DNA of 26,668 nucleotides from an uncultured Candidatus Peribacteria bacterium (GTDB lineage Bacteria > Patescibacteriota > Gracilibacteria > UBA1369): assembly GCA_964655905.1 (NCBI GenBank), contig CAZZPB010000021.1, forward strand, positions 1-26,668. The letters are read 5' to 3'. The notes under the pieces are model-generated. The model did no database searches. It was not told the DNA's origin and saw only the letters and a list, made by a program, of their open reading frames with translations. A program made the position numbers and the translations under genes. Shown here one piece after another: positions 10 through 25,702 of the stretch. Numbering within the stretch: position 1 is the first letter of the stretch; every line of letters starts with the position of its first letter.

Positions 10-80
10 ATGTGTTATCAACTTTATATGAAAACCGCAAACACAAATATTATTGCAAGAAAAGCTACAAAAACCTGCAT

Positions 81-190
81 CAAGCCTAAGAGTGGGTCTT
101 GTGGGTTCCCGCTCTTAGGCTTGCGAAGGGGAAAGGGGCCCCCGCGAAAGCGGGGGTACCTGGGGAAAACCGTAGGTTGCCCCCAGAAGA
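81..190 (-). mobile_element. Three-hairpin element E1 (homologous to E2 at 2484-2593, opposite orientation)
   Basis: Reverse complement aligns with E2: ttc(t/c)gggggcaacctacggttt, linker gcccc(t/c)ttccccttc, loop gggaacccac(a/g)agaccc. Hairpins: 81-96/108-123, 139-145/150-156, 160-186. Confidence 0.7.
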
Positions 191-192
191 AA

Positions 193-240
193 GAAATGAA
201 CCGTTTGATTGCGATGGAAATGACGGGGTCTGTTGGATGA
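193..240 (+). pseudogene. Copy of the last 15 codons of sufB (EMNRLIAMEMTGSVG*)
   Basis: The translation matches the conserved SufB C-terminus (…E-x-NRLI-x-x-EM-x-GSVG*). It is cut off from the rest of the gene by E1. Confidence 0.7.
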
Positions 241-241
241 A

Positions 242-269
242 TTAACAATTAATAATTAACAATTAATAA
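242..269. repeat. 14-bp tandem duplication (ttaacaattaataa x2) in the sufD leader
   Basis: Exact copies at 242-255 and 256-269. Confidence 0.9.
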
Positions 270-271
270 TT

Positions 272-916
272 ATGGATCCGGGCGCACTTAATAAAATAAC
301 TTTTCCAAAAGATAAAACAATTTTTGCCACAGGGTTCGAGAGTGCCAATATTTGCCTTGAAGAAGGGGTAAAATTGACTTTTATTTTGATCGCTACCGAT
401 GGGTTCCAGAGACCTGAAAAAGTCACTTTTGAACTTAAAGGCGCAGGGGCGCAGTTACAGTTTTTGGCCTTTATTGTGGGCAGAAAAGAAAAAATATTTC
501 CCTTTGAAACAGTTTCTCTGCATACGGCTCCAAATACAAAAGCCCATTATACTGTTAAAGCGGTCATGTTTGACCATTCGCAGGTTGATTACAAAGGCAA
601 CATTGTCATTGAAAAATCGGCGCAAATGACAGACAGCTATTTGTCACATCACACATTGCTGATGAGCGAACATGCAAGGGCAAAGTCCATTCCTGCTCTG
701 GAAATTTTAGCTGATGATGTGAAAGCTGGACATGCGGCTACAATCGGCAAAGTGGATGAAGAAATGATGTTTTATTTGAAGAGTCGCGGCATTGAAGAAT
801 GTGAAGCTGAACAAATGCTGGTGAATGGCTTTTTTGAAGGCCAATTAGCCATGATTATGGATGAAAACTTGCGTGAACGGGCTAGAAAAGCTATCATTGG
901 CTCTCTTATAACATAA
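272..916 (+). CDS. sufD: Fe-S cluster assembly protein SufD (short SufBD-family form)
   Basis: SIPALEILADDVKAGHAATIGKVDEEMMFYLKSRGI…LVNGF motif, within a suf operon. Confidence 0.9.
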   Translation: MDPGALNKITFPKDKTIFATGFESANICLEEGVKLTFILIATDGFQRPEKVTFELKGAGAQLQFLAFIVGRKEKIFPFETVSLHTAPNTKAHYTVKAVMFDHSQVDYKGNIVIEKSAQMTDSYLSHHTLLMSEHARAKSIPALEILADDVKAGHAATIGKVDEEMMFYLKSRGIEECEAEQMLVNGFFEGQLAMIMDENLRERARKAIIGSLIT

Positions 917-927
917 TATTTATTTTT

Positions 928-1092
928 ATGAACGATCAAAGTACTCAATGTGCCTGCGGTAAAGGCGAAACCGGTGCTTGTTGCGGAAAGAACGAATCCT
1001 GCGCCTGCGGCAAACAGGAAAGCTGCGGTTGCGATAGGAAGGAAAATGCTTGTAATTGTGGAAGTGAGGATGGCGGAGGTTGTTGCGGGTAA
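928..1092 (+). CDS. 54-aa Cys/Gly-rich metallothionein-like protein (absent from the ORF track)
   Basis: Hand translation: MNDQSTQCACGKGETGACCGKNESCACGKQESCGCDRKENACNCGSEDGGGCCG*. 12 Cys, all in CxC or CC pairs. ATG is 11 nt after the sufD stop, behind an AT-rich leader. Confidence 0.85.
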   Translation: MNDQSTQCACGKGETGACCGKNESCACGKQESCGCDRKENACNCGSEDGGGCCG

Positions 1093-1098
1093 TTTTGG

Positions 1099-1161
1099 TC
1101 CCCGCTTTCGCGGGGATGACACCTGGCTTTCGCGGGGATGACACCTGGCTTTCGTGGGGAT
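1099..1161. repeat. REP-like hairpin followed by a 22-bp tandem repeat x2.6
   Basis: Hairpin tccccgc-tttc-gcgggga at 1099-1116. Unit gctttcgcggggatgacacctg at 1104-1125 and 1126-1147, partial at 1148-1161. Confidence 0.85.
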
Positions 1162-1186
1162 CGGGTAAAAATAAAATAACTCCGTC

Positions 1187-1210
1187 TGTCATTCCCGCGC
1201 AGGCGGGAAT
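1187..1210 (+). repeat. TGTCAT-type REP with ATTCCC-N8-GGGAAT core (same pattern as Neisseria dRS3)
   Basis: tgtc-attccc-gcgcaggc-gggaat. Confidence 0.75.
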
Positions 1211-1227
1211 TAACTTTTTCTAAAATA

Positions 1228-2586
1228 ATGGATGTTAAGTCAGTGAAAAAAGATTTTCCAATCTTTGAGCGGCAAATCAACGGGCGGCCGCTGGTATACC
1301 TTGATTCCGCTTCCACAAGCCAAAAACCAAGGGTCGTGCTTGAAGCGCTGCAGCACTACTACACCACGATGAACGCCAACATCCACCGCGGCATCCACAC
1401 CATGGCGGAAGAAGCGACTCTGGCTTATGAAAGCGTACGGGAACACGTAGCGCGCTTCATCAACGCACGCACATCATCTGAAATTATTTTTACCCGCAAT
1501 ACGACTGAAGCCATCAATTTAGTGGCTTACAGCTGGGGAGAACACAACCTGAATGAAGGCGATGAAATTGTGGTGAGCATTTTGGAACACCATTCGAATT
1601 TTGTGCCGTGGCAGCAGCTTTGCAAAAGAAAAAAAGCTGTTTTTCGCGTCATGCCCGTTGATGAAAACGGCTTGATTCAGCCCAATACTCTTGAGAAGTA
1701 CATCACAAAAAAAACAAAACTTGTGGCCATCACGCAGATGTCCAATGTTCTTGGCACAATTATTCCTCTGGAGCCAATAATAAAGGCGGCTCACCAGAAT
1801 GGCGCGATTGTGCTCGTTGACGGCGCCCAGAGCGTGCCGCACATGGGCGTGGATGTGCAAAAACTGGACTGTGATTTTTTGGCTTTCTCAGGCCATAAAA
1901 TGTTTGGCCCGACAGGCGTTGGCGTTCTCTATGGCAAAAAAGCCCTTTTGGAAGCCATGCCGCCATTTTTGTTTGGAGGAGATATGATTAAAGAGGTTCA
2001 TGTAGCCGAAACTACCTGGAATGATATTCCATGGAAATTTGAGGCAGGAACTCCAAATATTGCCGATGTTATCGCTTTTGGAAAGGCTCTGGAATATTTC
2101 AACGACATTGGCATTGAAAATATTTCCCGCCATGAACAGCATTTATTGGCTTATGCTAGGGAAAAACTCGCCATGCTGCCGGGAATAATTTTTTACGGTC
2201 CACAAAATCACGGTATGTCGGGCGGCATTCTTTCATTTAATATTCCAACCGTTCACGCGCATGATGTGGCAGCCATTTTGAACGAGGAAGGCATTGCCAT
2301 TCGCGCCGGCCATCATTGCGCGCAGCCGCTGATGGAAGCGCTTAAGGTAGCGGCCACCGCCCGTTTGAGTTTTTATGTGTATAATGACGAAGCTGACATT
2401 GATCGCACGTTCGAAGCTCTTAAAAAGGTTTATAATATTTTCAAGCCAGAAAAACATGGACATCTACGGCGAAATAATCCTTGTTCCGGGGGCAACCTAC
2501 GGTTTCCCCCGGGCACTCCTCGGCAAGCCTCGGAGCCCCCTTCCCCTTCACATATTTTCAACCGGGAACCCACGAGACCCGCTTGA
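1228..2586 (+). CDS. sufS: Cysteine desulfurase SufS with an ~46-aa element-derived C-terminal extension
   Basis: YLDSAST, DGAQS, FSGHKMFGPTGVG (PLP lysine) and IRAGHHCAQP (catalytic Cys). The SufS-like sequence ends near KKVYNIFK (~2445), and the ORF continues through E2. Confidence 0.95.
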   Translation: MDVKSVKKDFPIFERQINGRPLVYLDSASTSQKPRVVLEALQHYYTTMNANIHRGIHTMAEEATLAYESVREHVARFINARTSSEIIFTRNTTEAINLVAYSWGEHNLNEGDEIVVSILEHHSNFVPWQQLCKRKKAVFRVMPVDENGLIQPNTLEKYITKKTKLVAITQMSNVLGTIIPLEPIIKAAHQNGAIVLVDGAQSVPHMGVDVQKLDCDFLAFSGHKMFGPTGVGVLYGKKALLEAMPPFLFGGDMIKEVHVAETTWNDIPWKFEAGTPNIADVIAFGKALEYFNDIGIENISRHEQHLLAYAREKLAMLPGIIFYGPQNHGMSGGILSFNIPTVHAHDVAAILNEEGIAIRAGHHCAQPLMEALKVAATARLSFYVYNDEADIDRTFEALKKVYNIFKPEKHGHLRRNNPCSGGNLRFPPGTPRQASEPPSPSHIFNREPTRPA

Positions 2587-2650
2587 AAATATGGCATATG
2601 TTCCATTATATTTTCTACTTTCAGCACATGGACATCTACGGCGAAATAAT
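2454..2650 (+). repeat. 25-bp exact direct repeat of the sufU start flanking E2
   Basis: acatggacatctacggcgaaataat at 2454-2478 and 2626-2650. It may extend left to atattttc (2435/2608) with divergence. Confidence 0.9.
2479..2625 (+). mobile_element. Three-hairpin element E2 inserted at the sufS/sufU junction
   Basis: 147 bp between the direct repeats. Hairpins: 2486-2512, ~2511-2538, and 2551-2566/2578-2593. Homologous to E1. Confidence 0.75.
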
Positions 2651-3002
2651 TCTCGACCATTACCGCAACCCGCACCATTACGGACGGCTTGAAAAAGCCA
2701 CTTTATCGGCAAAAGATGTAAATCCGCTCTGCGGGGACAGCATACAGATTGATTTGCTGATTGACGGCAACAACACAATTCAAGACATTGCTTTTACGGC
2801 TCAGGGCTGCGCCATAAGCCAGGCCAGCGCTTCCATGCTTAGTGACATTCTCATCGGAAAATCACTCAAGTTCGCAGCGCAAATATGCAGTGAAGATATT
2901 TACGAAATGGTGGGAGTGCCGCTATCGCCGGCGCGCATTAAATGCGCGCTTTTAGGCTTATCTGCAATAAAAAAAGCAATAACGCTGCAGTATGTTTCTT
3001 GA
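2628..3002 (+). CDS. sufU: SufU/IscU-family Fe-S scaffold or sulfur-transfer protein
   Basis: MDIYGEIILDHYRNP start, NPLCGD, GCAISQASAS, RIKCAL. The listed 2481 start lies inside E2 and is unlikely. Confidence 0.9.
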   Translation: MDIYGEIILDHYRNPHHYGRLEKATLSAKDVNPLCGDSIQIDLLIDGNNTIQDIAFTAQGCAISQASASMLSDILIGKSLKFAAQICSEDIYEMVGVPLSPARIKCALLGLSAIKKAITLQYVS

Positions 3003-5478: not shown

Positions 5479-5506
5479 GTTTTGGATCTAGCAATACGAT
5501 CTCTCA

Positions 5507-5724
5507 AAAAACGCGCAACACAAACTTTAGGCCTATGTATGATTTTCGAATGGAATCAGCTTTCCATTGATCTATAAGCCATTATTGCTTAATCCATTTT
5601 GTCTTCGCCTTTATGACATTCATTAGAAGACAACCTTCAGATCTCAAACCCACTACCAAGCCTTTAAATCGTACGACCGCAGATACATTATCACTATTTT
5701 ATGAAAACTTTCTAAATTATTTCT
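5507..5724 (-). ncRNA. Candidate structured RNA, copy 1 (RNA ~5680 to 5506, promoter-like region 5687-5716)
   Basis: Homologous to 22973-23172, including an 18-bp exact block tcattagaagacaacctt. Stems pair through G-U only on the minus strand. Ends in a U-tract. Confidence 0.6.
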
Positions 5725-5786
5725 GAATTTTTCAAACTATTTGCCACAAGCCCTTAATTTTTTATTTTTTATGTTATTATATCCGC

Positions 5787-6398: not shown

Positions 6399-7338
6399 AA
6401 ATATCTATGATCTTGTGATTATTGGAGCGGGTTGCGCTGGGGCAAGCGGCGCCATGTATGCCGCGCGCATGAATTTAAAAACGGTAATGATCGCTGAATT
6501 GCCCGGCGGACTCATAACAACAACTCATCTTGTTGAAAACTGGCCCGGGATCAAAAACATATCAGGACCAGACCTGGGAAGCGCTTTAGTTGACCATGCC
6601 GTATCATTTGGCGTCCCTTTGGTGAACGAACGCGTAATTGAAGTAAAAAAAGCCATTCCAGCTCCACCTGCGGAAAAACAAAGCGGATACATCGTAAAAA
6701 CGGCTTCCAACACCTATTATGCAAAGACCGTTCTTTTCGCGACAGGCACAAAACACAAAACGCTGGACGTGCCGGGCGAAAAAGAATTTACCAATAAAGG
6801 CCTTTCATACTGCGCCCTTTGCGACGGCGCCTTTTTTAAGGGTAAAACGGTTGCCGTGGTGGGCAGCGGCGATTCCGCGGCTAAAGAAGCGCTTTTATTA
6901 AGCGAATATTGTCCAAAAGTGTATATTTTTGTCCGCAAAGATAAGCTGAAAGCGGAACCTGTGAATTTTGACCGCGTGATCGCAAAAGGCATGGATAAAA
7001 TCGAAATACGGTATCGCACTGAAATCAAAGAAATTTTTGGCACAAAAAGCGTGGAAAAAGTTCTTTTGAACACAGGGGAAGAAATGGCTTTACAGGGCAT
7101 TTTTGTTGCCATCGGCCACACTGCTCTTTCAGAATTGGCGGGCCAATTGGGCGTAACATTAAATGACAACGGTGAAATTATCATTAACCGCAAGTCCCAG
7201 ACAAATCTATCCGGTGTTTTTGGCGCCGGCGACGTGTGCGATACTCCTTTTAAGCAGGCCATTACTGGCGCAGCGGAGGCCGTATCCGCCGCCTATTTCG
7301 CCTTTGACTATATTGGTAAAAACGATGTGGCGTTTTAG
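6388..7338 (+). CDS. trxB: Thioredoxin reductase
   Basis: IIGAGCAG, YCALCDG (CxxC), VVGSGDSA, VFGAGDV…KQAITGA. Start reassigned to MENK at 6388. Confidence 0.93.
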   Translation: MENKNIYDLVIIGAGCAGASGAMYAARMNLKTVMIAELPGGLITTTHLVENWPGIKNISGPDLGSALVDHAVSFGVPLVNERVIEVKKAIPAPPAEKQSGYIVKTASNTYYAKTVLFATGTKHKTLDVPGEKEFTNKGLSYCALCDGAFFKGKTVAVVGSGDSAAKEALLLSEYCPKVYIFVRKDKLKAEPVNFDRVIAKGMDKIEIRYRTEIKEIFGTKSVEKVLLNTGEEMALQGIFVAIGHTALSELAGQLGVTLNDNGEIIINRKSQTNLSGVFGAGDVCDTPFKQAITGAAEAVSAAYFAFDYIGKNDVAF

Positions 7339-7432: not shown

Positions 7433-8182
7433 TCAGCGCCAGGCCCTAATTTTTTTAATTTCATCCCCAATAAACATTAATACCTCCTGTTTAAGGAATT
7501 TTCTTGTTTGATTAAAATCTTTTTTACCAATCAGGTGATTTAAATCTTCATCAAGCATGTTTTGTGTAACTTTTTTTTGAATAAAACCGTAAAGCTGTTC
7601 AAAAAAGCTTTTTACATTTGTTTTTCGTCTTTCTTCAATGATTTGCGGTAAATATGCATATCCGTCCCTAAAAAATGTGTGAATGTCAAAAATATCTCTT
7701 CCTGCTACTGACCTGTATTTCTCATATCTTTCTATTGCAGCCACCAGTTTATTGGCAAACATTGTAGGGATTGTTTGACAATAAAAAATCCGGTCAATTT
7801 CAGTAAAACGATATGGCTCATATTCATTTGAAACAGGCGGCGGATATGTAACATCAAAACGTAAAATACTTCTTTCACCGGGAATATTTTTATATCTCAA
7901 AAAAAATTGCGGCACTCTTTTACTGCGATCCTTGATTTCAAGTCCCAGTTCACTAAAAACTGCCTCCAGCTCCCTGTTTAATTTATCAATTTGTTCAGTA
8001 GTTGCCGGAAGCAGATCAAAGTCCAAATCAACAGAAAATCGTTCAATTATGCCTCTCATTGCCGCGCAGGTGCCGCCTTTAAAACGCAGCAAAGAAACCA
8101 GAAAAGTATGATCCGCCAATTTGCTCAGCACTCTATAAAGCCAGGCTTTATGGATGGCATCACCTGCTTTTGGTAAATCCAT
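7433..8182 (-). CDS. AbiEii-type nucleotidyltransferase toxin (type IV TA)
   Basis: FKGGTCAAM…RFSVDLDFD, ANKLVAA, RDIFDI. Confidence 0.88.
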   Translation of the reverse strand: MDLPKAGDAIHKAWLYRVLSKLADHTFLVSLLRFKGGTCAAMRGIIERFSVDLDFDLLPATTEQIDKLNRELEAVFSELGLEIKDRSKRVPQFFLRYKNIPGERSILRFDVTYPPPVSNEYEPYRFTEIDRIFYCQTIPTMFANKLVAAIERYEKYRSVAGRDIFDIHTFFRDGYAYLPQIIEERRKTNVKSFFEQLYGFIQKKVTQNMLDEDLNHLIGKKDFNQTRKFLKQEVLMFIGDEIKKIRAWR

Positions 8183-8750
8183 AACGTTTGGAAGTTAAAG
8201 GATAACCAATTGTTTTCTGTATCTCCCTAATTTTTGTCCAATCAATTGGCCGGTCGAAATGAAATTTTGGCATAAAATAAAGCATATCGGCAATTGCCCG
8301 CTCGACTGAAGCAACCCGTATTCCATCCATATTGTTAATACCAACAGGATTAAATAAAAATCTATTATTTGCTTTTCTGGATTTATACAAACAATCTCCC
8401 ACCTTAAATGTGTCTGATTTTGAACTGATAAATGTGAAAGAACCTGGTCTTTTTGATACATACCCTTCTCTATAAAGAATGCTTTCGGCGCTCAAATAGC
8501 AATAGGTGTGTAAAATCTTTGTCCCGAGCAATATGGGATCCAGGTTATCTGGTGGTAAAAGCGAATATAATCCTTTAAATAATCTATACAATAAGCCGGC
8601 ACTACAATACCGCTTTAGAGTGGTATACAAAGTGTTTTTGTTCTTGATAAGCCATAAATTAGCTAAATCACTTGTATGAAAAAGCTTCTCGTCCATCCTT
8701 GCCAACAAAGCGAAACGCTGTGCCTGTATATTGACTTTTCCTGTACTCAT
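8160..8750 (-). CDS. AbiEi-type antitoxin / wHTH regulator
   Basis: LYRLFKGLY, YLSAESIL, VASVERAIADMLY. Overlaps the AbiEii start. Start may be 8750 or 8768. Confidence 0.82.
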   Translation of the reverse strand: MSTGKVNIQAQRFALLARMDEKLFHTSDLANLWLIKNKNTLYTTLKRYCSAGLLYRLFKGLYSLLPPDNLDPILLGTKILHTYCYLSAESILYREGYVSKRPGSFTFISSKSDTFKVGDCLYKSRKANNRFLFNPVGINNMDGIRVASVERAIADMLYFMPKFHFDRPIDWTKIREIQKTIGYPLTSKRYGFTKSR

Positions 8751-8809
8751 GTGTACAGGATAATACAAGTAGATGCAAATTGCAAGCCCACGTGTGTCAT
8801 GCGTTATGC

Positions 8810-10220: not shown

Positions 10221-10266
10221 AAATCCCCCGTAGGGAACGCAGATCTGCGTTCCCTACGGGGGATTT
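10221..10266. repeat. Perfect 46-bp GTAG-type palindrome, probable bidirectional terminator
   Basis: aaatcccccgtagggaacgcaga|tctgcgttccctacgggggattt, between the tRNA and a convergent gene. Confidence 0.85.
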
Positions 10267-10701: not shown

Positions 10702-10740
10702 TAAGTTATGGAGTTAAAAAATAAAAATGTTATTGGAACT

Positions 10741-11370
10741 TTATTTGTCTTTTACCTTTTTGAGCCTTTCTTCCGTCTTTTTTACTTTATTCTCGTATTT
10801 TTTTACTTCACCTTCCTGCTTTTCCATCCTTTTCTCTAATTTTTTGGTTTCCTTTGCTTTTCTTTCTTCTTTTTTCTCTTCACGTTCAGCCTTATTTTCA
10901 GTCTTTTTCTTTTCCCACTTTGCCTTATCTTCAGCCTTTTTCTTGTCTGTTTCAGCCCTCTTCTCGGCTATCTTCTTGTCCGTTTCAGCCCTCTTCTCAG
11001 CTATCTTCTTGTCTGTTTCAGCCCTCTTCTTATCCATCTCGCCACTCTTTTCAGGATTTTTCTTGTCCGTCTCGGCCCTCTTTTCAGCCCTCTTCTTGTC
11101 CAACTCAGCTCTCTTTTCAGCTCTCTTCTTGTCCAACTCGGACCTATTTCCTTCCTGTTTCTTGAGACCTTTTTTCAATCCCTCACCTCTTTTTAGAGCA
11201 TTTTCAGTGCCTGTGACCTTTTGTTCAGTCTTTGGAGGAGTAGTGGTGGCGGGAGTAGTAACCGCAGGAGTAGCAGCGGCAGGAGCGGTTGTTCCAGCTG
11301 TCTGCGCAAACACCGGCGCGGTGGAAAGCAGCATGGACAAAGCTATACTTATTGCAATGTATTTTTTCAT
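10741..11370 (-). CDS. Secreted Lys/Glu-rich coiled-coil repeat protein (paralog B)
   Basis: Signal peptide nearly identical to paralog A, with 11-aa AETDKKxAEKR repeats. Confidence 0.85.
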   Translation of the reverse strand: MKKYIAISIALSMLLSTAPVFAQTAGTTAPAAATPAVTTPATTTPPKTEQKVTGTENALKRGEGLKKGLKKQEGNRSELDKKRAEKRAELDKKRAEKRAETDKKNPEKSGEMDKKRAETDKKIAEKRAETDKKIAEKRAETDKKKAEDKAKWEKKKTENKAEREEKKEERKAKETKKLEKRMEKQEGEVKKYENKVKKTEERLKKVKDK

Positions 11371-11462
11371 ATATTTTTAGAGTAAAAAAATAAAATTAGT
11401 TTATATTGTGGAATATCCCAACCCGTGTGACCAACAATTATAACGTAAAACTACTAAAAATA

Positions 11463-12263: not shown

Positions 12264-13205
12264 ATGGCGCCTCGAAAAAAAAAGAAAAAAGATTTTACCA
12301 CTCTTTATGTAGCGGCTCTGGCAGGCCTTGTTATTGTTTTGATTTACTTTGTAGCATACGCTACAAAAACGGTAAAATTGCCGTCATTTTTAATTGGTAA
12401 AAACACATCATCGACAACTCAAAAAGAAAATCCTTTGGTGCGTCCAAACCCATCTTTGAAGAAAATGCAGGAGAATTCGGATAAAAAATTACCGTCAATA
12501 ACCTATAAATCGGTTTTGGGAGACAACCGTGTAAAATATAAAATTGATCATTTTAAAAAACTTGATGTACAGCCTTTGGAATTTGAGGTTTTTGATGAAA
12601 ATCGCAAACCGTACACTCCAAATGATCTTCAAATTGTTCGTGGTAATAAGATGCACTATATTGTTGTTTCGGCGAATTTGAATGAGTTCCAACACCTCTA
12701 CCCCGCATTTACGAATGGCAAATGGAAAACAAGCGCAAAGCTGCCAAATCCCGGCATATATTACGCATTCGTTGATATTACCACGGTTGAGGGCAAAAAC
12801 ATGGTTTTGCGGACTTTGCTCACTGTTAAAACTTCACCGACATCAATTTCGTGGCCAAGAGCAACCACTGACCTTTTAGCAAATTCTGCAGGCTACAAAG
12901 CTCAAATGAAAATTGCATCACTCCAGATTTATAAACCGAATGTGTTATCTTTTTTTCTGAGTAAAAATGAAGCTGTCGAGAAAAATATTCAGCCATATTT
13001 GGATGCGTTTGGAAGCGTTGTTCTGTTTCGACAGGGCGATCTGGACAGTTTCTTTATGTACGCGCAGCCGTTTTCCAACGATCCGGAAAGAGGTTTGGTG
13101 GAATTTTCAACGACATTTATTTTGCCCGGACGCTACACGGTTTTTGCCGAATTCAAAATTGGGAACAGGATCGTGACGTTTCCTTTTACGTTTGATGTTG
13201 AATAA
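12264..13205 (+). CDS. Membrane-anchored protein with two beta-sandwich domains (YtkA / heavy-metal-associated secreted type)
   Basis: N-terminal TM, MHYIVVSANLNEFQHLYP…PGIYYAFVD, QPYLDAFG…PGRYTVFAEF…VTFPF. Confidence 0.65.
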   Translation: MAPRKKKKKDFTTLYVAALAGLVIVLIYFVAYATKTVKLPSFLIGKNTSSTTQKENPLVRPNPSLKKMQENSDKKLPSITYKSVLGDNRVKYKIDHFKKLDVQPLEFEVFDENRKPYTPNDLQIVRGNKMHYIVVSANLNEFQHLYPAFTNGKWKTSAKLPNPGIYYAFVDITTVEGKNMVLRTLLTVKTSPTSISWPRATTDLLANSAGYKAQMKIASLQIYKPNVLSFFLSKNEAVEKNIQPYLDAFGSVVLFRQGDLDSFFMYAQPFSNDPERGLVEFSTTFILPGRYTVFAEFKIGNRIVTFPFTFDVE

Positions 13206-13206
13206 T

Positions 13207-13252
13207 GATTTTGCCGTAGAGACGCAAAATTTTGCGTCTCTACGGCAAAATC
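13207..13252. repeat. Perfect 46-bp GTAG-type palindrome between convergent genes
   Basis: gattttgccgtagagacgcaaaa|ttttgcgtctctacggcaaaatc. Confidence 0.88.
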
Positions 13253-17467: not shown

Positions 17468-18526
17468 ATGATAAACGATACTTATACACTGAACAAACGG
17501 CAGGATCACATATTGGATTTTATAGATAAAAAAGGAGACGCATCTATTTCTGAAATTTTCGCGGCTATATTCAAAAAAACCCGCGCTGTCGCTGAAATCA
17601 CTGTAAAAAGAGATCTCAAAAAATTGGTTGATTTGAATTTAATTGTTGCAAAAGGCGCCGGCAGAGCCGTGAAATATGAATTATCCCCGGCATATTCGGT
17701 TATAAGACCTGTTGATGTGGATAAATATTTTGAAAAGGAAATTGACGAACGGATGATACGGGAACGTTTCAATTTTCATGTGTTTTCACACCTCAAGTCC
17801 ATATTTTCGCGTGATGAAAAAATATTTTTACAAAAATTGAATAATAGTTATTTGAAAAAAGTGGGGCATCTGCCAAAAGATGTGTTAAAAAAAGAATTTG
17901 AAAGATTGACCATAGAGCTAAGCTGGAAATCGTCCAGAATTGAGGGTAACACCTATTCTTTGCTTGAAACAGAGCAGCTTTTAAAAGAAAACAGAGAAGC
18001 AGGGGGACATACCAAAGAGGAGGCTATCATGATTCTTAATCATAAAAAAACCCTGGATTATATACGCAATAATGTTCGGGGATTCAAATCTTTATCCTTA
18101 AAAAAGCTCGAAGAAATTCATTCTTTATTAATTGAAGGACTTGGCGTTTCAAAAAATGTCAGAAAGACAATGGTTAGAATTACCGGCACAAGATTTAAAC
18201 CTCTTGATAATCAATTTCAGATAACTGAATCGCTCAAAAAAGCATGCTCCCTTGTTAATCAGCGAAAAAATCCCTTTGAAAAAGCATTGATTATGATGCT
18301 TCTAATTGCGTACATTCAACCTTTCGTTGATGGAAATAAGCGGACAAGCCGCTTGGCTGGCAATGCTGTTCTTTTGGCAAATGGTTGCTGCCCTCTGTCA
18401 TACAGAAGCATCAACGAAATCGAATACAAGAAAGCAGTTTTAATTTTTTATGAACAAAATAATATTTCCTATTTTAAAAAACTCTTCTTACAGCAGTTTG
18501 AATTCGTTGTGAAGAATTATTTTTAG
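17468..18526 (+). CDS. Fic-domain protein with an N-terminal DeoR-like wHTH
   Basis: ITVKRDLKKLV…GAGRAVKY, WKSSRIEGN, YIQPFVDGNKRTSR. Confidence 0.9.
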   Translation: MINDTYTLNKRQDHILDFIDKKGDASISEIFAAIFKKTRAVAEITVKRDLKKLVDLNLIVAKGAGRAVKYELSPAYSVIRPVDVDKYFEKEIDERMIRERFNFHVFSHLKSIFSRDEKIFLQKLNNSYLKKVGHLPKDVLKKEFERLTIELSWKSSRIEGNTYSLLETEQLLKENREAGGHTKEEAIMILNHKKTLDYIRNNVRGFKSLSLKKLEEIHSLLIEGLGVSKNVRKTMVRITGTRFKPLDNQFQITESLKKACSLVNQRKNPFEKALIMMLLIAYIQPFVDGNKRTSRLAGNAVLLANGCCPLSYRSINEIEYKKAVLIFYEQNNISYFKKLFLQQFEFVVKNYF

Positions 18527-21860: not shown

Positions 21861-22961
21861 ATGTATTTTAAGCCAAAAATCGGGTTTGTGGTCTTAACAG
21901 GTATGCTCATATTACTGAGCGCGCCAGCAAATGCCAGCGCTGCGCAAGTAGGGACAGGTCGCAACCTGTCCCTACTTGCGCCCACGAATTTCACGCCAAA
22001 AACTTATATATCGCCGAAATATAACGCTTTTGACCATGATTATTATCGTGCGCCAAAATTAGCTGAAGGGGTTGATACGCCGCCCCAGGCTGATTTTTAC
22101 ATTTTCACCAACCAGGCAGGCTTTCAAAATTCCGCTACTGGAACAATTGAAACTGTCTTTACCTTCGATGCCAGCGCTTCAACAGACGCCGAAACGCCTG
22201 CTAGTATGCTAGAAGTTCGCTGGTATTTCGAAAACAGCGCTGCTCCGGATACTTATTTTTCAAGGGCAAAATCCACCCGCCATACCTTCAAAAAAGCAGG
22301 AACATATAACGTAAAACTTGAGGTATTGGATAAGGGCGGCAATATCGCTCAAATAAGTAAAAAAATTATAGTGGTCGAAAATACTTCTCCAATCCCTTTT
22401 TTTAAGGTTGAACCTGTGACCGGCACTGAAAATACTGTTTTTCATTTCGATACTTCCTTATCAAGAGACGATCAATATTTGGCTTCTCATCTGGAATACC
22501 GTTTTGACTGGGATAGCGATGGCAAATGGGACACCGCGTTTCAGAAAAAAACCCACTGGTATCATCGCTTTAACGCAACAGGCAATTATACAGTTACAAT
22601 GGAAGTAAAAGATCCGGACAATCAAAAAGCAGCGCTTAAAAAAGATATTGTTGTTGGCGCAAATACTCCTCCTGTTGCCAGTTTTTCTGTACGCGCACTG
22701 CGTTCATTGGACAAAAAAAATAACAACATTGATTATGAATTTGACGCAGCAGCAAGCTTCGACAGGGAAACGCCTCAAAAAGAATTATTTTATCGTTGGG
22801 ATTTTCATTATAATGGCCCGAATGACATTATTTATGACACAGCGTGGAGCCATTCTCCAAAATCTTTCGCCCGTTTCGAAAAATCTGAAAAATCCGTGGT
22901 AAAGTTGGAGGTTATGGATGCGGATGGAGATATCTCAAGCGCTATATATCGGATCGAGTAA
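21861..22961 (+). CDS. Secreted protein with three PKD domains
   Basis: Signal peptide, then three units of F-x-FDAS-x-S-x-D…(Y)RW(D/Y)…G-x-Y-x-V-x-(L/M)EV-x-D. Confidence 0.88.
   Translation: MYFKPKIGFVVLTGMLILLSAPANASAAQVGTGRNLSLLAPTNFTPKTYISPKYNAFDHDYYRAPKLAEGVDTPPQADFYIFTNQAGFQNSATGTIETVFTFDASASTDAETPASMLEVRWYFENSAAPDTYFSRAKSTRHTFKKAGTYNVKLEVLDKGGNIAQISKKIIVVENTSPIPFFKVEPVTGTENTVFHFDTSLSRDDQYLASHLEYRFDWDSDGKWDTAFQKKTHWYHRFNATGNYTVTMEVKDPDNQKAALKKDIVVGANTPPVASFSVRALRSLDKKNNNIDYEFDAAASFDRETPQKELFYRWDFHYNGPNDIIYDTAWSHSPKSFARFEKSEKSVVKLEVMDADGDISSAIYRIE
21942..21981. repeat. GTAG-type palindrome inside the PKD gene
   Basis: gcgcaagtagggacaggt-cgca-acctgtccctacttgcgc (18-bp arms). Confidence 0.85.
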
Positions 22962-22972
22962 TTTTTAATTAG

Positions 22973-23172
22973 AAAAACGCGCAGCCCAAACCTTAGGCCT
23001 ATATATGGTTTTTGCCTTCTATAAGCCATTTGTTCTTCAATCCCTTTCCGTCTTCACCTTTTACATATCATTAGAAGACAACCTTAGAATCTCAAACCTA
23101 CTACCAAGCCTTTTAATCGTACGACCAATTACGTATTATCACGTTTTTATGAAATCCATCTAAATTATTTCT
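22973..23172 (-). ncRNA. Candidate structured RNA, copy 2 (RNA ~23128 to 22973, promoter-like region 23135-23164)
   Basis: Homologous to 5507-5724, with pairing-preserving substitutions and a shorter variable loop. Confidence 0.6.
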
Positions 23173-23249
23173 TAAAAATTGTGTATATCGCAGCCGGAAT
23201 TTGTGGTACAATTACGAGAGCGGTAAAAAAATTTAATAAAATCAAACTT

Positions 23250-24820: not shown

Positions 24821-24925
24821 GTTGTATGAAAGTGAATAAATAAGTTGATAAACGTCTTTGGAAATATTGTAAGGAAAATCTTTCCAAAGCTCAAGCCAGA
24901 TTATCTGGTAAAGGTATTTATTGTT

Positions 24926-24957
24926 TTGCTTTACTTTAAAGATAATTGCTTTACTTT
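24926..24957 (+). promoter_or_regulatory. Probable autoregulatory operator of the AbrB/VapC pair
   Basis: ttgctttacttt repeated at 24926 and 24946 (20-bp phase), with an inverted gtaaag just upstream. Confidence 0.4.
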
Positions 24958-25010
24958 TTTCAATTTTTACCTTATTATCAGGGTATAGTAGCTTTTATTC
25001 TAACTTTATT

Positions 25011-25292
25011 ATGAGCGACATATCTAAATCTTCGCTTTCGGAAAAAGCCCAAACAACTGTTCCTGCTGAAATACGTAAAATGTTTAACGTCAGGGCTAAA
25101 GACCAGATTCTTTGGGTGCCGGTCGGTCCCGGCATGATCAGCCTTGTAGCTGTAAAAAAGTATAAAAAAGGGAGTTGGACAAAGAACATTTGCGGAAAAT
25201 ACTCAAATAATAAAGTTGATGCCGTTCAAAGTCTTTTGGATGACCGAAAGAAAGATCTTATTCTGGAAAAACGTGGATTTCTTAATAAATAA
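25011..25292 (+). CDS. AbrB/MazE/SpoVT-family antitoxin
   Basis: SSLSEKAQTTVPAEIRKMFNVRAKDQILW. Start reassigned to MSDI. Confidence 0.85.
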   Translation: MSDISKSSLSEKAQTTVPAEIRKMFNVRAKDQILWVPVGPGMISLVAVKKYKKGSWTKNICGKYSNNKVDAVQSLLDDRKKDLILEKRGFLNK

Positions 25293-25294
25293 AG

Positions 25295-25702
25295 GTGATT
25301 GACATTCTTGATGCTTCAGCCCTTCTGGCTTTTATAAAAAAAGAAAAGGGCTATCAAAAAGTGGAACAATTATTTCTTAATGCCGAATCAAGCGGCAAAA
25401 GTTTGTTCATGCATCAGGTAAATTTTATAGAATTTATTTATAAAGCACGGCAAATTTATAACATGGAAAAATTTAATGAGATTATTGCTGATTTGCAGAC
25501 TCCAATATTTGGCATTATGAATTACATGGAGGCCGATATTGGGTTTTATTGTGGCCATCTAAAGGCCGAGTATTATTTGTCGCTTGGAGATGCCATGGGC
25601 CTGGCGTACACAAAAATCATGGAAGGCAGATTTTGGTCAGCAGACAAGGCTCTATTGCCAATAGCCAATAAAGAAAAAATTGAACTTAATTTGTTCCGTT
25701 AA
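25295..25702 (+). CDS. PIN-domain toxin (VapC family)
   Basis: ILDASALLAF…E-KG, VNFIE, LSLGDAMGLA, WSADK. GTG start 2 nt after the antitoxin stop. Confidence 0.9.
   Translation: MIDILDASALLAFIKKEKGYQKVEQLFLNAESSGKSLFMHQVNFIEFIYKARQIYNMEKFNEIIADLQTPIFGIMNYMEADIGFYCGHLKAEYYLSLGDAMGLAYTKIMEGRFWSADKALLPIANKEKIELNLFR

Follow-up and report, generated by a model that had tools for sequence, protein, structure and literature searches.

How does a short noncoding sequence come to stand between two copies of the same gene end, twice within a single operon? The question is raised by the suf operon on contig CAZZPB010000021.1, which is complete at 26,668 nt, makes up the whole stretch of DNA analyzed here (the window), and comes from an uncultivated Peregrinibacteria-type bacterium. 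The sequence, which we call element E, occurs between sufB and sufD (copy E1) and between sufS and sufU (copy E2). We show that E is mobile, noncoding, and polar and that its insertion is associated with a long target duplication of variable length.

At the sufS-sufU locus, all parts of the insertion lie on the forward strand. An orphan sufU start (AC, the ATG, and 20 nt; positions 2454 to 2478) stands in native sufS context, with a junction that is also present in the related contig L018. It is followed by a linker, CCTTGTT (2479 to 2485), the E2 core (2486 to 2593), an AT-rich tail of 32 nt that is not found in empty sites (2594 to 2625), and a second copy of the sufU start (2626 to 2650) that is continuous with the complete gene. 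The repeat, noticed in an earlier reading made without database searches (the sequence-only reading), is exact over 25 nt, begins 2 nt before the sufU ATG, and encloses an insert of 147 nt. A diverged extension to about 44 bp, also suggested there, was not upheld (P of about 0.07), whereas the preserved complete gene copy was, as sufU is intact and carries a NifU_N domain. The sufS frame runs through the first repeat copy into E2, giving a protein of 452 amino acids (aa) compared with 430 aa in L018 and 409 to 435 aa among SufS relatives. Its C terminus consists of eight residues from the repeat and then a new 34-aa tail from the linker and E2.

At the sufB-sufD locus, the element lies on the reverse strand. 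Its AT-rich tail of 69 nt (12 to 80) is not conserved between copies and is not found in empty sites. It is followed by the E1 core (81 to 186) and a linker reading TTTCTT on the element strand (187 to 192), a T-rich linker being common to all copies. Beyond this linker, on the forward strand, lies an orphan 50-nt 3′ fragment of sufB (15 codons, the stop, and 2 nt; 193 to 242) and then the native spacer and sufD. Positions 193 to 240 encode EMNRLIAMEMTGSVG*, the SufB C terminus of L018, and the whole fragment has the peptide and context seen in L018 to L020. On the other side of the element, the contig starts on the forward strand with the last 9 nt (GTT GGA TGA) and 2 further nt of what is presumed to be the complete sufB (1 to 11), identical to positions 232 to 242. 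The proposed sufB-end repeat of about 50 bp therefore holds for its 11 visible nt, while the other 39 nt of the upstream copy lie unread beyond the contig start; neither exact look-ups nor a search for homologues of SufB, a protein too conserved for this purpose, recovered them. The native SufB C terminus agrees with the proposed length, as does an independent Logan contig, L001 (run ERR3478687), which begins exactly at position 193, the predicted left edge of the repeat. Readthrough of the sufB stop under an alternative genetic code was considered and rejected, as the fragment ends at the identical TGA. The extra gene fragment had been placed about 5 nt from the first hairpin; the linkers of E1 and E2 measure 6 to 7 nt.

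A comparison with related suf operons identified both copies as insertions. E is absent at both window sites in six such operons: the sufB-sufD and sufS-sufU junctions were read directly in L018, L019, and L020, and gene spacing together with a covariance-model scan showed the same for L042 to L045. The sufB gene of L018 ends in ...EMNRLIAMEMTGSVG*, with the sufD start 26 nt further, and its sufS runs directly into an overlapping sufU (...AAACCCGAAAAACATGGACATTTACGGCGAAATT...). This native sufS/sufU overlap is about 65 to 75 nt in the closest relatives (L018, 6077 to 6142; L019, 4546 to 4619), and in more distant relatives, the two genes are adjacent and do not overlap. A native site thus comprises the left flank, the repeat, and the right flank without a tail, to which the window adds the linker, E, the tail, and a second copy of the repeat. 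In turn, the window is empty at a tRNA-Leu site that is filled in L009.

We next describe the element itself. Aligning the reverse complement of E1 with E2 gave three invariant blocks (GGGGGCAACCTACGGTTT, CCCCyTTCCCCTTC, and GGGAACCCACrAGACCC), between which the sequence is unrelated between the copies yet self-complementary. The blocks of the first hairpin and of the third loop each occur twice in the window against an expectation of 0.05 to 0.08. As single strands, both copies fold into three hairpins, P1, P2, and P3 (z = −6.0 for E1 and −4.2 for E2), P2 of E2 being weak (4 plus 2 bp). The shared three-hairpin structure described in the sequence-only reading is thereby confirmed, with boundaries now set at 81 to 186 and 2486 to 2593. 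In E2, P1 occupies positions 2486 to 2512, P2 2516 to 2535, a C/T-rich linker 2536 to 2550, and P3 2551 to 2593; in the reversed E1, P3 occupies 81 to 123, the C/T-rich linker 124 to 138, P2 139 to 156, and P1 160 to 186. The family core measures approximately 105 nt and the full, noncoding element about 115 to 130 nt, made up of a short T-rich leader, the three hairpins, and an AT-rich 3′ end. The stems vary, and three parts are fixed, namely, the P1 loop (AACC-TAC-GGTT), the C/T-rich linker, and the P3 loop (GGG-AACCCACrAGA-CCC).

An exact-pattern scan of GTDB genomes returned four copies of E, all in one Candidatus Peribacteria metagenome-assembled genome (MAG), and a scan of Joint Genome Institute (JGI) metagenomes returned five further, more divergent copies. 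A covariance model built from 11 copies then recovered a twelfth, L010b. The resulting 12 DNA copies (two in the window, five in the MAG, and five in two metagenomes) score 67 to 124 bits, with 110 bits each for E1 and E2, and everything else scores at most 30 bits. Across the 12 copies, pairing holds in 92.5% of P1/P3 cells, and 12 of the 21 P1/P3 pairs show compensatory change on both sides, a number reached by none of 500 shuffles and approached by none of the slid registers, so that the compensatory change first noticed in P1 extends over the family. Pairing is equally good on either strand, and G-U pairs are nearly absent and show no strand asymmetry. P2 varies in length and sequence among the copies, and another short helix takes its place in L014 and L015. 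The latter copy (7972 to 8121), which lies 3 nt past the dnaA stop codon and lacks the usual P2, has an additional 40-nt GC-rich hairpin within the conserved P3 loop, indicating that this loop tolerates the insertion of a helix.

E does not belong to any Rfam family. Rfam returned no family match for E at either gathering or permissive thresholds; only the two window tRNAs reached a gathering score, and the top match on E1, the small RNA sodF, scored 25 bits against a cutoff of 46. BLAST searches of E against phage and plasmid collections gave no match. In IMG/VR, seven matches to the 17-mer of the P3 loop were regarded as chance, none having the P1 motif, and gapped patterns found only a remote P1-like hairpin (GGGAACCTACGGTTCCC and then CCCTCCCTT) that scored at most 30 bits and was assigned to another family. 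A six-frame peptide query made from several copies matched only the window SufS and one D-Ala-D-Ala ligase (Ddl) protein, and an exhaustive search of representatives with the reverse-frame peptide of E2 gave no match.

Direct repeats flank seven of the 12 DNA copies, with lengths of 25, 45, about 50, 62, 63, 89, and at least 125 nt; they score 25 to 125 against a shuffle maximum of 8 to 14. The flanking duplications thus recur at five loci in other genomes: 63 nt of the 3′ part of tRNA-Leu in L009, 45 nt from the ATG of an MgtC-family gene in L010b, 62 nt of the start of a GHMP-kinase-like gene (labeled by eye) in L014, 89 nt in L012, of which 26 nt are the element itself, and at least 125 nt of a gene 3′ end (by eye, typA/bipA) in L010a, where at least two tandem units precede a 100-N gap. 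The duplicated sequences are unrelated to each other, comprising the sufB end, the sufU start, the 3′ part of tRNA-Leu, the 5′ part of tRNA-Arg, the typA end, and the starts of the MgtC-family and kinase-like genes. Both repeat copies of L009 bear a tRNA variant specific to the MAG, which shows that the duplicate came from the same genome, and in L010b, the 45 identical nucleotides lie directly beside wholly unrelated flanks. A thirteenth copy was seen as protein only: translating the reverse strand of E gives a 41-aa stretch that Ddl contains as an in-frame insert. KDG(S/T) stands on both sides of this insert (3 to 4 aa), both occurrences aligning to the same residues of solved Ddl structures. 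This amino acid repeat implies a duplication of about 10 nt in mid-gene. No flanking repeats were found at L011, L013, L015, and L017, and none were seen at L016, where the left flank is only 36 nt and a repeat may have been missed. Long duplication is therefore frequent yet either not obligatory or not permanent.

The arrangement of these parts is polar. On the element strand, every repeat-bearing locus reads native left flank, first repeat copy, linker, P1, P2, C/T-rich linker, P3, tail, and then the second repeat copy with the whole gene; the first copy is the orphan gene fragment, its internal end facing the element. The whole gene lies on the tail side and the fragment on the P1 side in all seven cases (two-sided P of about 0.016). 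At these loci, the linker to P1 is 4 to 9 nt long and ends in TTnTT. While the linker and P1 end are constant, the tails are AT rich, range from 0 to 69 nt, and are unrelated between copies, apart from their first 13 to 15 nt, which are apparently inherited within a subfamily (L014 compared with L015). The possibility that the tails are diverged native upstream DNA was rejected (P = 0.07 to 0.95).

The outer repeat boundaries also show regularities. The repeat starts with AT in five loci, and the base pair right after it is TC in four of the six readable loci (E2, L009, L010a, and L012). At four loci, the outer boundary lies 0 to 2 nt from a gene terminus, which is the start codon in E2 and L010b, the stop codon in E1, and the tRNA end in L009; the intergenic room at these boundaries is 20 to 75 nt, and the chance of such a coincidence is roughly 10−4. 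Loci with sharp boundaries show a jump from AT-rich to GC-richer sequence (0.10 to 0.40 versus 0.40 to 0.60 over 20 nt), absent from L014, and this jump may be the real signal for the outer boundary. Selection in a gene-dense genome can largely account for the association with gene ends, since only events that span a gene end, are wholly intergenic, or fall in-frame in a tolerant loop can survive.

With confidence that falls somewhat short of even, we favor the reading that E is a nonautonomous element without terminal inverted repeats that is inserted at widely and variably staggered breaks, an HUH-type enzyme being preferred. An enzyme acting from another genomic locus, most likely a nickase or transposase of the HUH type, would recognize E in the form of folded single-stranded DNA, set the P1 end fairly precisely, and leave the P3 end fuzzy, giving the variable tail. 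Two nicks, made independently and on opposite strands, would receive the copy, and the duplication would arise as the gaps are filled. What the loci show directly is that a copy is added at a new site and that the target DNA between two breaks, with a spacing of about 10 to more than 125 nt, comes to lie on both sides of it. Where the duplicated stretch spans a gene end, one whole copy of the gene survives; inside a gene, only in-frame insertions do. A DNA-level HUH-type nickase is favored because both strands of E pair equally well and both orientations occur in one operon, and also because the loops rather than the stems are conserved and the partial copy of L012 starts precisely at the P3 loop (GGG|AACCCAC), 4 nt past the alaS stop codon. 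Conserved loops on variable stems fit the recognition of a hairpin by a protein. An HUH-like process is further favored by Replitron-1, an HUH element and, to our knowledge, the only described element that combines a precise end, a fuzzy end, and variable duplications.

Several observations weigh against staggered insertion by such an enzyme. A flanking repeat is missing from five of the 12 DNA copies, and random staggered nicks do not predict the gene-end boundaries at the four loci above. The L012 repeat contains 26 nt of the element and so cannot be a simple duplication from a first insertion. The two copies of the L014 repeat differ at seven positions, all of them in the first 21 nt, and are identical over the 41 nt that follow. 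No source of the tails, which this reading would seek in the parental flank, was matched in the local and related sequences compared (about 120 kb), and no enzyme for E was found in the approximately 26 kb of genome and 40 kb of MAG that were read. The L014 changes, which all fall in codons 1 to 7 of the functional copy, are biased from GC to AT and mostly conservative; they could reflect rapid adaptation of a start now lying behind strong hairpins, or the gene start could have arrived with the element. A diversity-generating retroelement was rejected here, as the differences are not adenine specific and the sequences read contain no reverse transcriptase. The outer boundaries, the L012 repeat, and the L014 differences are not well accounted for by any of the models considered here.

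For the partner enzyme, Pfam scans covered all window open reading frames (ORFs) of at least 90 aa and 10 ORFs neighboring the copies in L010, L011, L013, L016, and L017. These returned housekeeping and toxin-antitoxin genes only, and no transposase, reverse transcriptase, or HUH/Y1 gene was found. Together with the lack of coding capacity in E itself, this agrees with the nonautonomous repeated element proposed in the sequence-only reading. The sole protein recurring near the copies, enolase, was rejected as a partner because it is a housekeeping protein.

Most of the data are fitted by staggered nicks, by target-primed or RNA-templated copying, by integration of a circle, and by duplication after insertion. 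In the second of these, which we regard as unlikely, E would be a retroelement resembling a short interspersed nuclear element (SINE): E would be transcribed, a reverse transcriptase acting in trans would copy it at a target nick, a variable second nick would give the duplication, and the tail would consist of readthrough or extra nucleotides. The variable duplication length, the variable 3′ tail, the few extra nucleotides at the 5′ junction, the structured body of about 110 nt, and the 5′-truncated partial copy of L012 are all as expected. The pairing without strand asymmetry and the presence of both orientations relative to host transcription are not, and the 3′ end is neither homopolymeric nor conserved, the sequences read contain no reverse transcriptase, and no bacterial precedent is known.

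Equally unlikely, in our view, is the integration of a circle or concatemer (linker, E, tail, and a captured gene end) by a single crossover, in which the repeat would be homology borne by the element instead of a product of gap filling. Each repeat-bearing locus can be read as such a circle opened out to more than its unit length, L010 having at least two tandem units and L012 a permuted 1.5 units, and the gene-side copy of L014 is a diverged, AT-richer start encoding a similar peptide. The shortest DNA repeat, of 25 nt, is near the minimum for RecA pairing, which also counts for this mechanism. On the other hand, a new gene fragment would have to be loaded for each target, recombination would need more than the approximately 10 nt repeated in Ddl, both L009 copies have the host-specific variant, and the 45 identical nucleotides of L010b lie beside unrelated flanks.

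We give slightly less credence still to a two-step process in which E inserts without a long duplication and a later nick, or replication stalled at its hairpins, copies the downstream flank upstream. Such a process would account for an L012 repeat that begins inside the element, for the five copies without a repeat, and for the tandem amplification in L010. Simple tandem duplication would yield two elements and not one, however, and the junction between the left flank and the repeat is native in all simple cases, as predicted by a one-step target duplication.

That E is instead a cis-acting structured RNA, either a regulator or a ribozyme, is very improbable: conserved loops with covarying stems and the optional extra hairpin in the L015 P3 loop would suit an RNA, but E has no Rfam match, occurs in opposite orientations in one operon, beside unrelated genes, and in-frame within a protein, and is missing from orthologous sites in relatives. 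Least credible of all are assembly artifacts at a repeated element, for although the window starts inside the E1 repeat and a 100-N gap interrupts the L010 tandem array, the same architecture occurs at different genes in the window, an NCBI MAG, and a JGI metagenome from independent assemblies, and the E2 locus is continuous within one contig.

E resembles several known kinds of element and differs from each of them. Classical miniature inverted-repeat transposable elements have terminal inverted repeats and a short target duplication of fixed length, whereas E has three local hairpins and a 5′ end (TTnTT-CTGGGGG) that is not complementary to its AT-rich 3′ end, with repeats of about 10 to at least 125 nt that are absent at five copies. 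Closer in form are the repetitive extragenic palindromic (REP) sequences, their REPIN derivatives, and elements derived from insertion sequences (IS) of the IS200/IS605 type, which, like E, are short, noncoding, extragenic, and hairpin based. They share with E a conserved part in or near the loop or foot of a hairpin (CTAC in the P1 loop of E) and a presumed enzyme acting in trans on folded single strands. In contrast to E, with its three hairpins, C/T-rich linker, and duplications of 10 to over 125 nt, these elements, mobilized by REP-associated tyrosine transposases (RAYT) or TnpA Y1 enzymes, have one or two hairpins and create no target duplication. No RAYT/Y1 transposase was found in the window or beside the copies of E that were scanned. 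REP and REPIN sequences are short palindromes with a conserved GTAG/CTAC motif and lie outside genes, as do most copies of E, one being inside a gene. IS200/IS605 elements insert 3′ of a fixed tetra- or pentanucleotide, whereas E has no common target beyond its tendency toward AT at the repeat start and TC after it.

Long, variable duplications, the one unusual property of E, are not without precedent. The sequence-only reading held that target duplications of IS elements usually measure 2 to 14 bp, which is incomplete: IS1549 and IS1634 have direct repeats of 8 to 514 bp, for which there is no mechanistic model (PMC2266710), and the HUH transposon Replitron-1 makes duplications of variable length and has a fuzzy right end (PMC10288648). 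IS1549 and IS1634 resemble E in their long direct repeats of variable length but are autonomous DDE elements of 1.5 to 2 kb with terminal inverted repeats, whereas E measures about 120 nt and has neither an ORF nor terminal inverted repeats; an IS1634-type transposase was not found in the sequences read. Replitron-1 and Replitron-N1 of Chlamydomonas are polar, with a defined left end and a fuzzy right end, and include a nonautonomous derivative (PMC10288648). E resembles a nonautonomous HUH rolling-circle transposon of the IS91, Helitron, or replitron kind in having one defined end (linker and P1) and a variable, readthrough-like other end. Replitrons differ in being eukaryotic, with short duplications, fuzzy ends traceable to the parental flank, and a known Rep gene; the duplications of E are longer, its tails matched no source in the sequence compared, and no HUH gene was seen in the sequence read.

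Further parallels lie outside these groups. The palindromic elements of Rickettsia are structured, measure about 100 to 150 nt, occupy a host with a small genome, occur in-frame in protein genes, and have no known mobilizing enzyme, all as in E, but they have no sequence relation to E and no long gene-end duplications have been described for them. SINEs, which depend on target-primed reverse transcription by long interspersed nuclear elements, share with E a nonautonomous, structured body, a 3′ tail and duplications that both vary, and truncation at the 5′ end; they differ in being eukaryotic and RNA based with an A-rich tail, and no sign of an RNA stage was seen for E. Integrative islands and casposons restore the end of a tRNA or protein gene and, like E, leave a direct repeat from inside the gene to its end. 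They use one fixed attachment sequence and an integrase of their own, whereas each copy of E has a different repeat and no gene.

The insertions also leave their mark on host reading frames. In most copies, the core of E has no stop codon in any forward frame. In L010b (minus strand of L010, around 7039 to 7200), an ORF runs from the orphan ATG through E and stops at the TAATG of the true MgtC-family start, and in L014 (2280 to 2450), the ORF through E stops (TGA) 4 nt before the true kinase-like start. In the window, the sufB stop is directly followed by the start of an ORF at 10 to 240 (TGA ATG), which closes at the stop of the orphan sufB fragment, upstream of sufD. That these frames hand over at neighboring start or stop codons suggests selection for translational coupling across the insert, and judged from their sequence, the open frames look like preserved coupling.

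Sequences partly resembling E were found in several places. L016 contains a degenerate second copy (168 to 237) 45 nt downstream of the full one, with an intact P1, a decayed remainder, and a score of 23 bits. The IMG/VR contigs L021 to L027, several of which are labeled GVMAG, contain many times per contig the hairpin GGGAACC-TAC-GGTTCCC with CCCTCCCTT after it. The loop occurs in both orientations, and L021 and L025 have tandem arrays of 75 to 87 nt; the hairpin is similar to P1 and the C/T-rich linker of E but has no P3 and, the tandem array of L021 aside, no flanking repeats. In the window, two perfect 46-bp palindromes (10221 to 10266, after a tRNA-Leu, and 13207 to 13252, after ORF 12264 to 13205) have the core CCGTAG...CTACGG, the hexamer of the P1 loop. 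A P1-like hairpin enclosing a palindrome of this kind lies upstream of the L010b insertion. Between a cysteine-rich ORF and sufS, the window has 2.6 tandem copies of a 22-nt unit, GCTTTCGCGGGGATGACACCTG (1104 to 1161), and a separate hairpin, GTCATTCCCGCGCAGGCGGGAAT (1187 to 1211), whose CCCCGC-TTTC-GCGGGG stem-loop is the same as P2 of E1. As L018 has different DNA in this interval, the window apparently contains a second REP-like repeat family.

The remainder of the operon reads as follows. A short form of sufD (272 to 916, forward strand; 214 aa; PF01458) is followed by the cysteine-rich ORF (928 to 1092; 54 aa, 14 cysteines), which has CxC and CC motifs, is metallothionein-like, and is conserved in L018 and L019. 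Next come sufS (1228 to 2586, forward strand; 452 aa), with an Aminotran_5 domain over aa 23 to 393, and the intact sufU (2628 to 3002); downstream lie a DUF59-type Fe-S assembly gene and then folA and thyA. The nearest SufS, with 85% identity, comes from the Candidatus Peribacteria MAG GCA_964360095.1, whose contig L018 is syntenic with the window. SufB of the relative L020 (2719 to 5208) measures 829 aa and includes a LAGLIDADG intein.

Elsewhere in the window, defense or toxin-antitoxin genes occupy 7433 to 8768, 17468 to 18526, and 24921 to 25702; the set comprises an AbiEii toxin and its partner ORF, which lies upstream, a Fic/DOC protein, and a MazE/PrlF-like antitoxin paired with a PIN toxin. 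A 33-nt in-frame repeat occurs seven times at 10830 to 11168, within overlapping ORFs on the two strands (10727 to 11380, forward; 10741 to 11370, reverse), and a homologous repeat protein occurs in L009. A staphylococcal-nuclease-like gene and an unannotated 341-aa ORF each have upstream of them a copy of an intergenic sequence of approximately 230 nt without an Rfam match (5484 to 5735 and 22953 to 23180); the two copies are about 80% identical.

The genomes of candidate phyla radiation bacteria, at about 1 Mb, contain almost no spare DNA, and the mobile elements of these bacteria are little known. The E family is a parasite-like repeat that can spread in such a genome without killing genes, either by duplicating a gene end or by staying in-frame, and at three or more loci, its frame remains open so that ribosomes are passed on to the start or stop codon that comes next. 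Its repeats break short-read assemblies, which bears on the quality of MAGs, and the window contig itself starts inside one. As a polar element of 120 nt with known empty and filled sites, E offers a tractable system for the mechanism of long, variable duplications. A bolder proposal, which has a real though minority chance of being right, is that E is the visible part of an undescribed prokaryotic transposition pathway, in which a hairpin-recognizing enzyme (a new HUH type or a reverse transcriptase of the SINE/LINE kind) would paste an element of approximately 120 nt at gene boundaries and copy up to more than 100 nt of the gene end, with the outer break set by the mechanism and not by selection. 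If this were true, insertion into a gene-dense minimal genome would be nondestructive.

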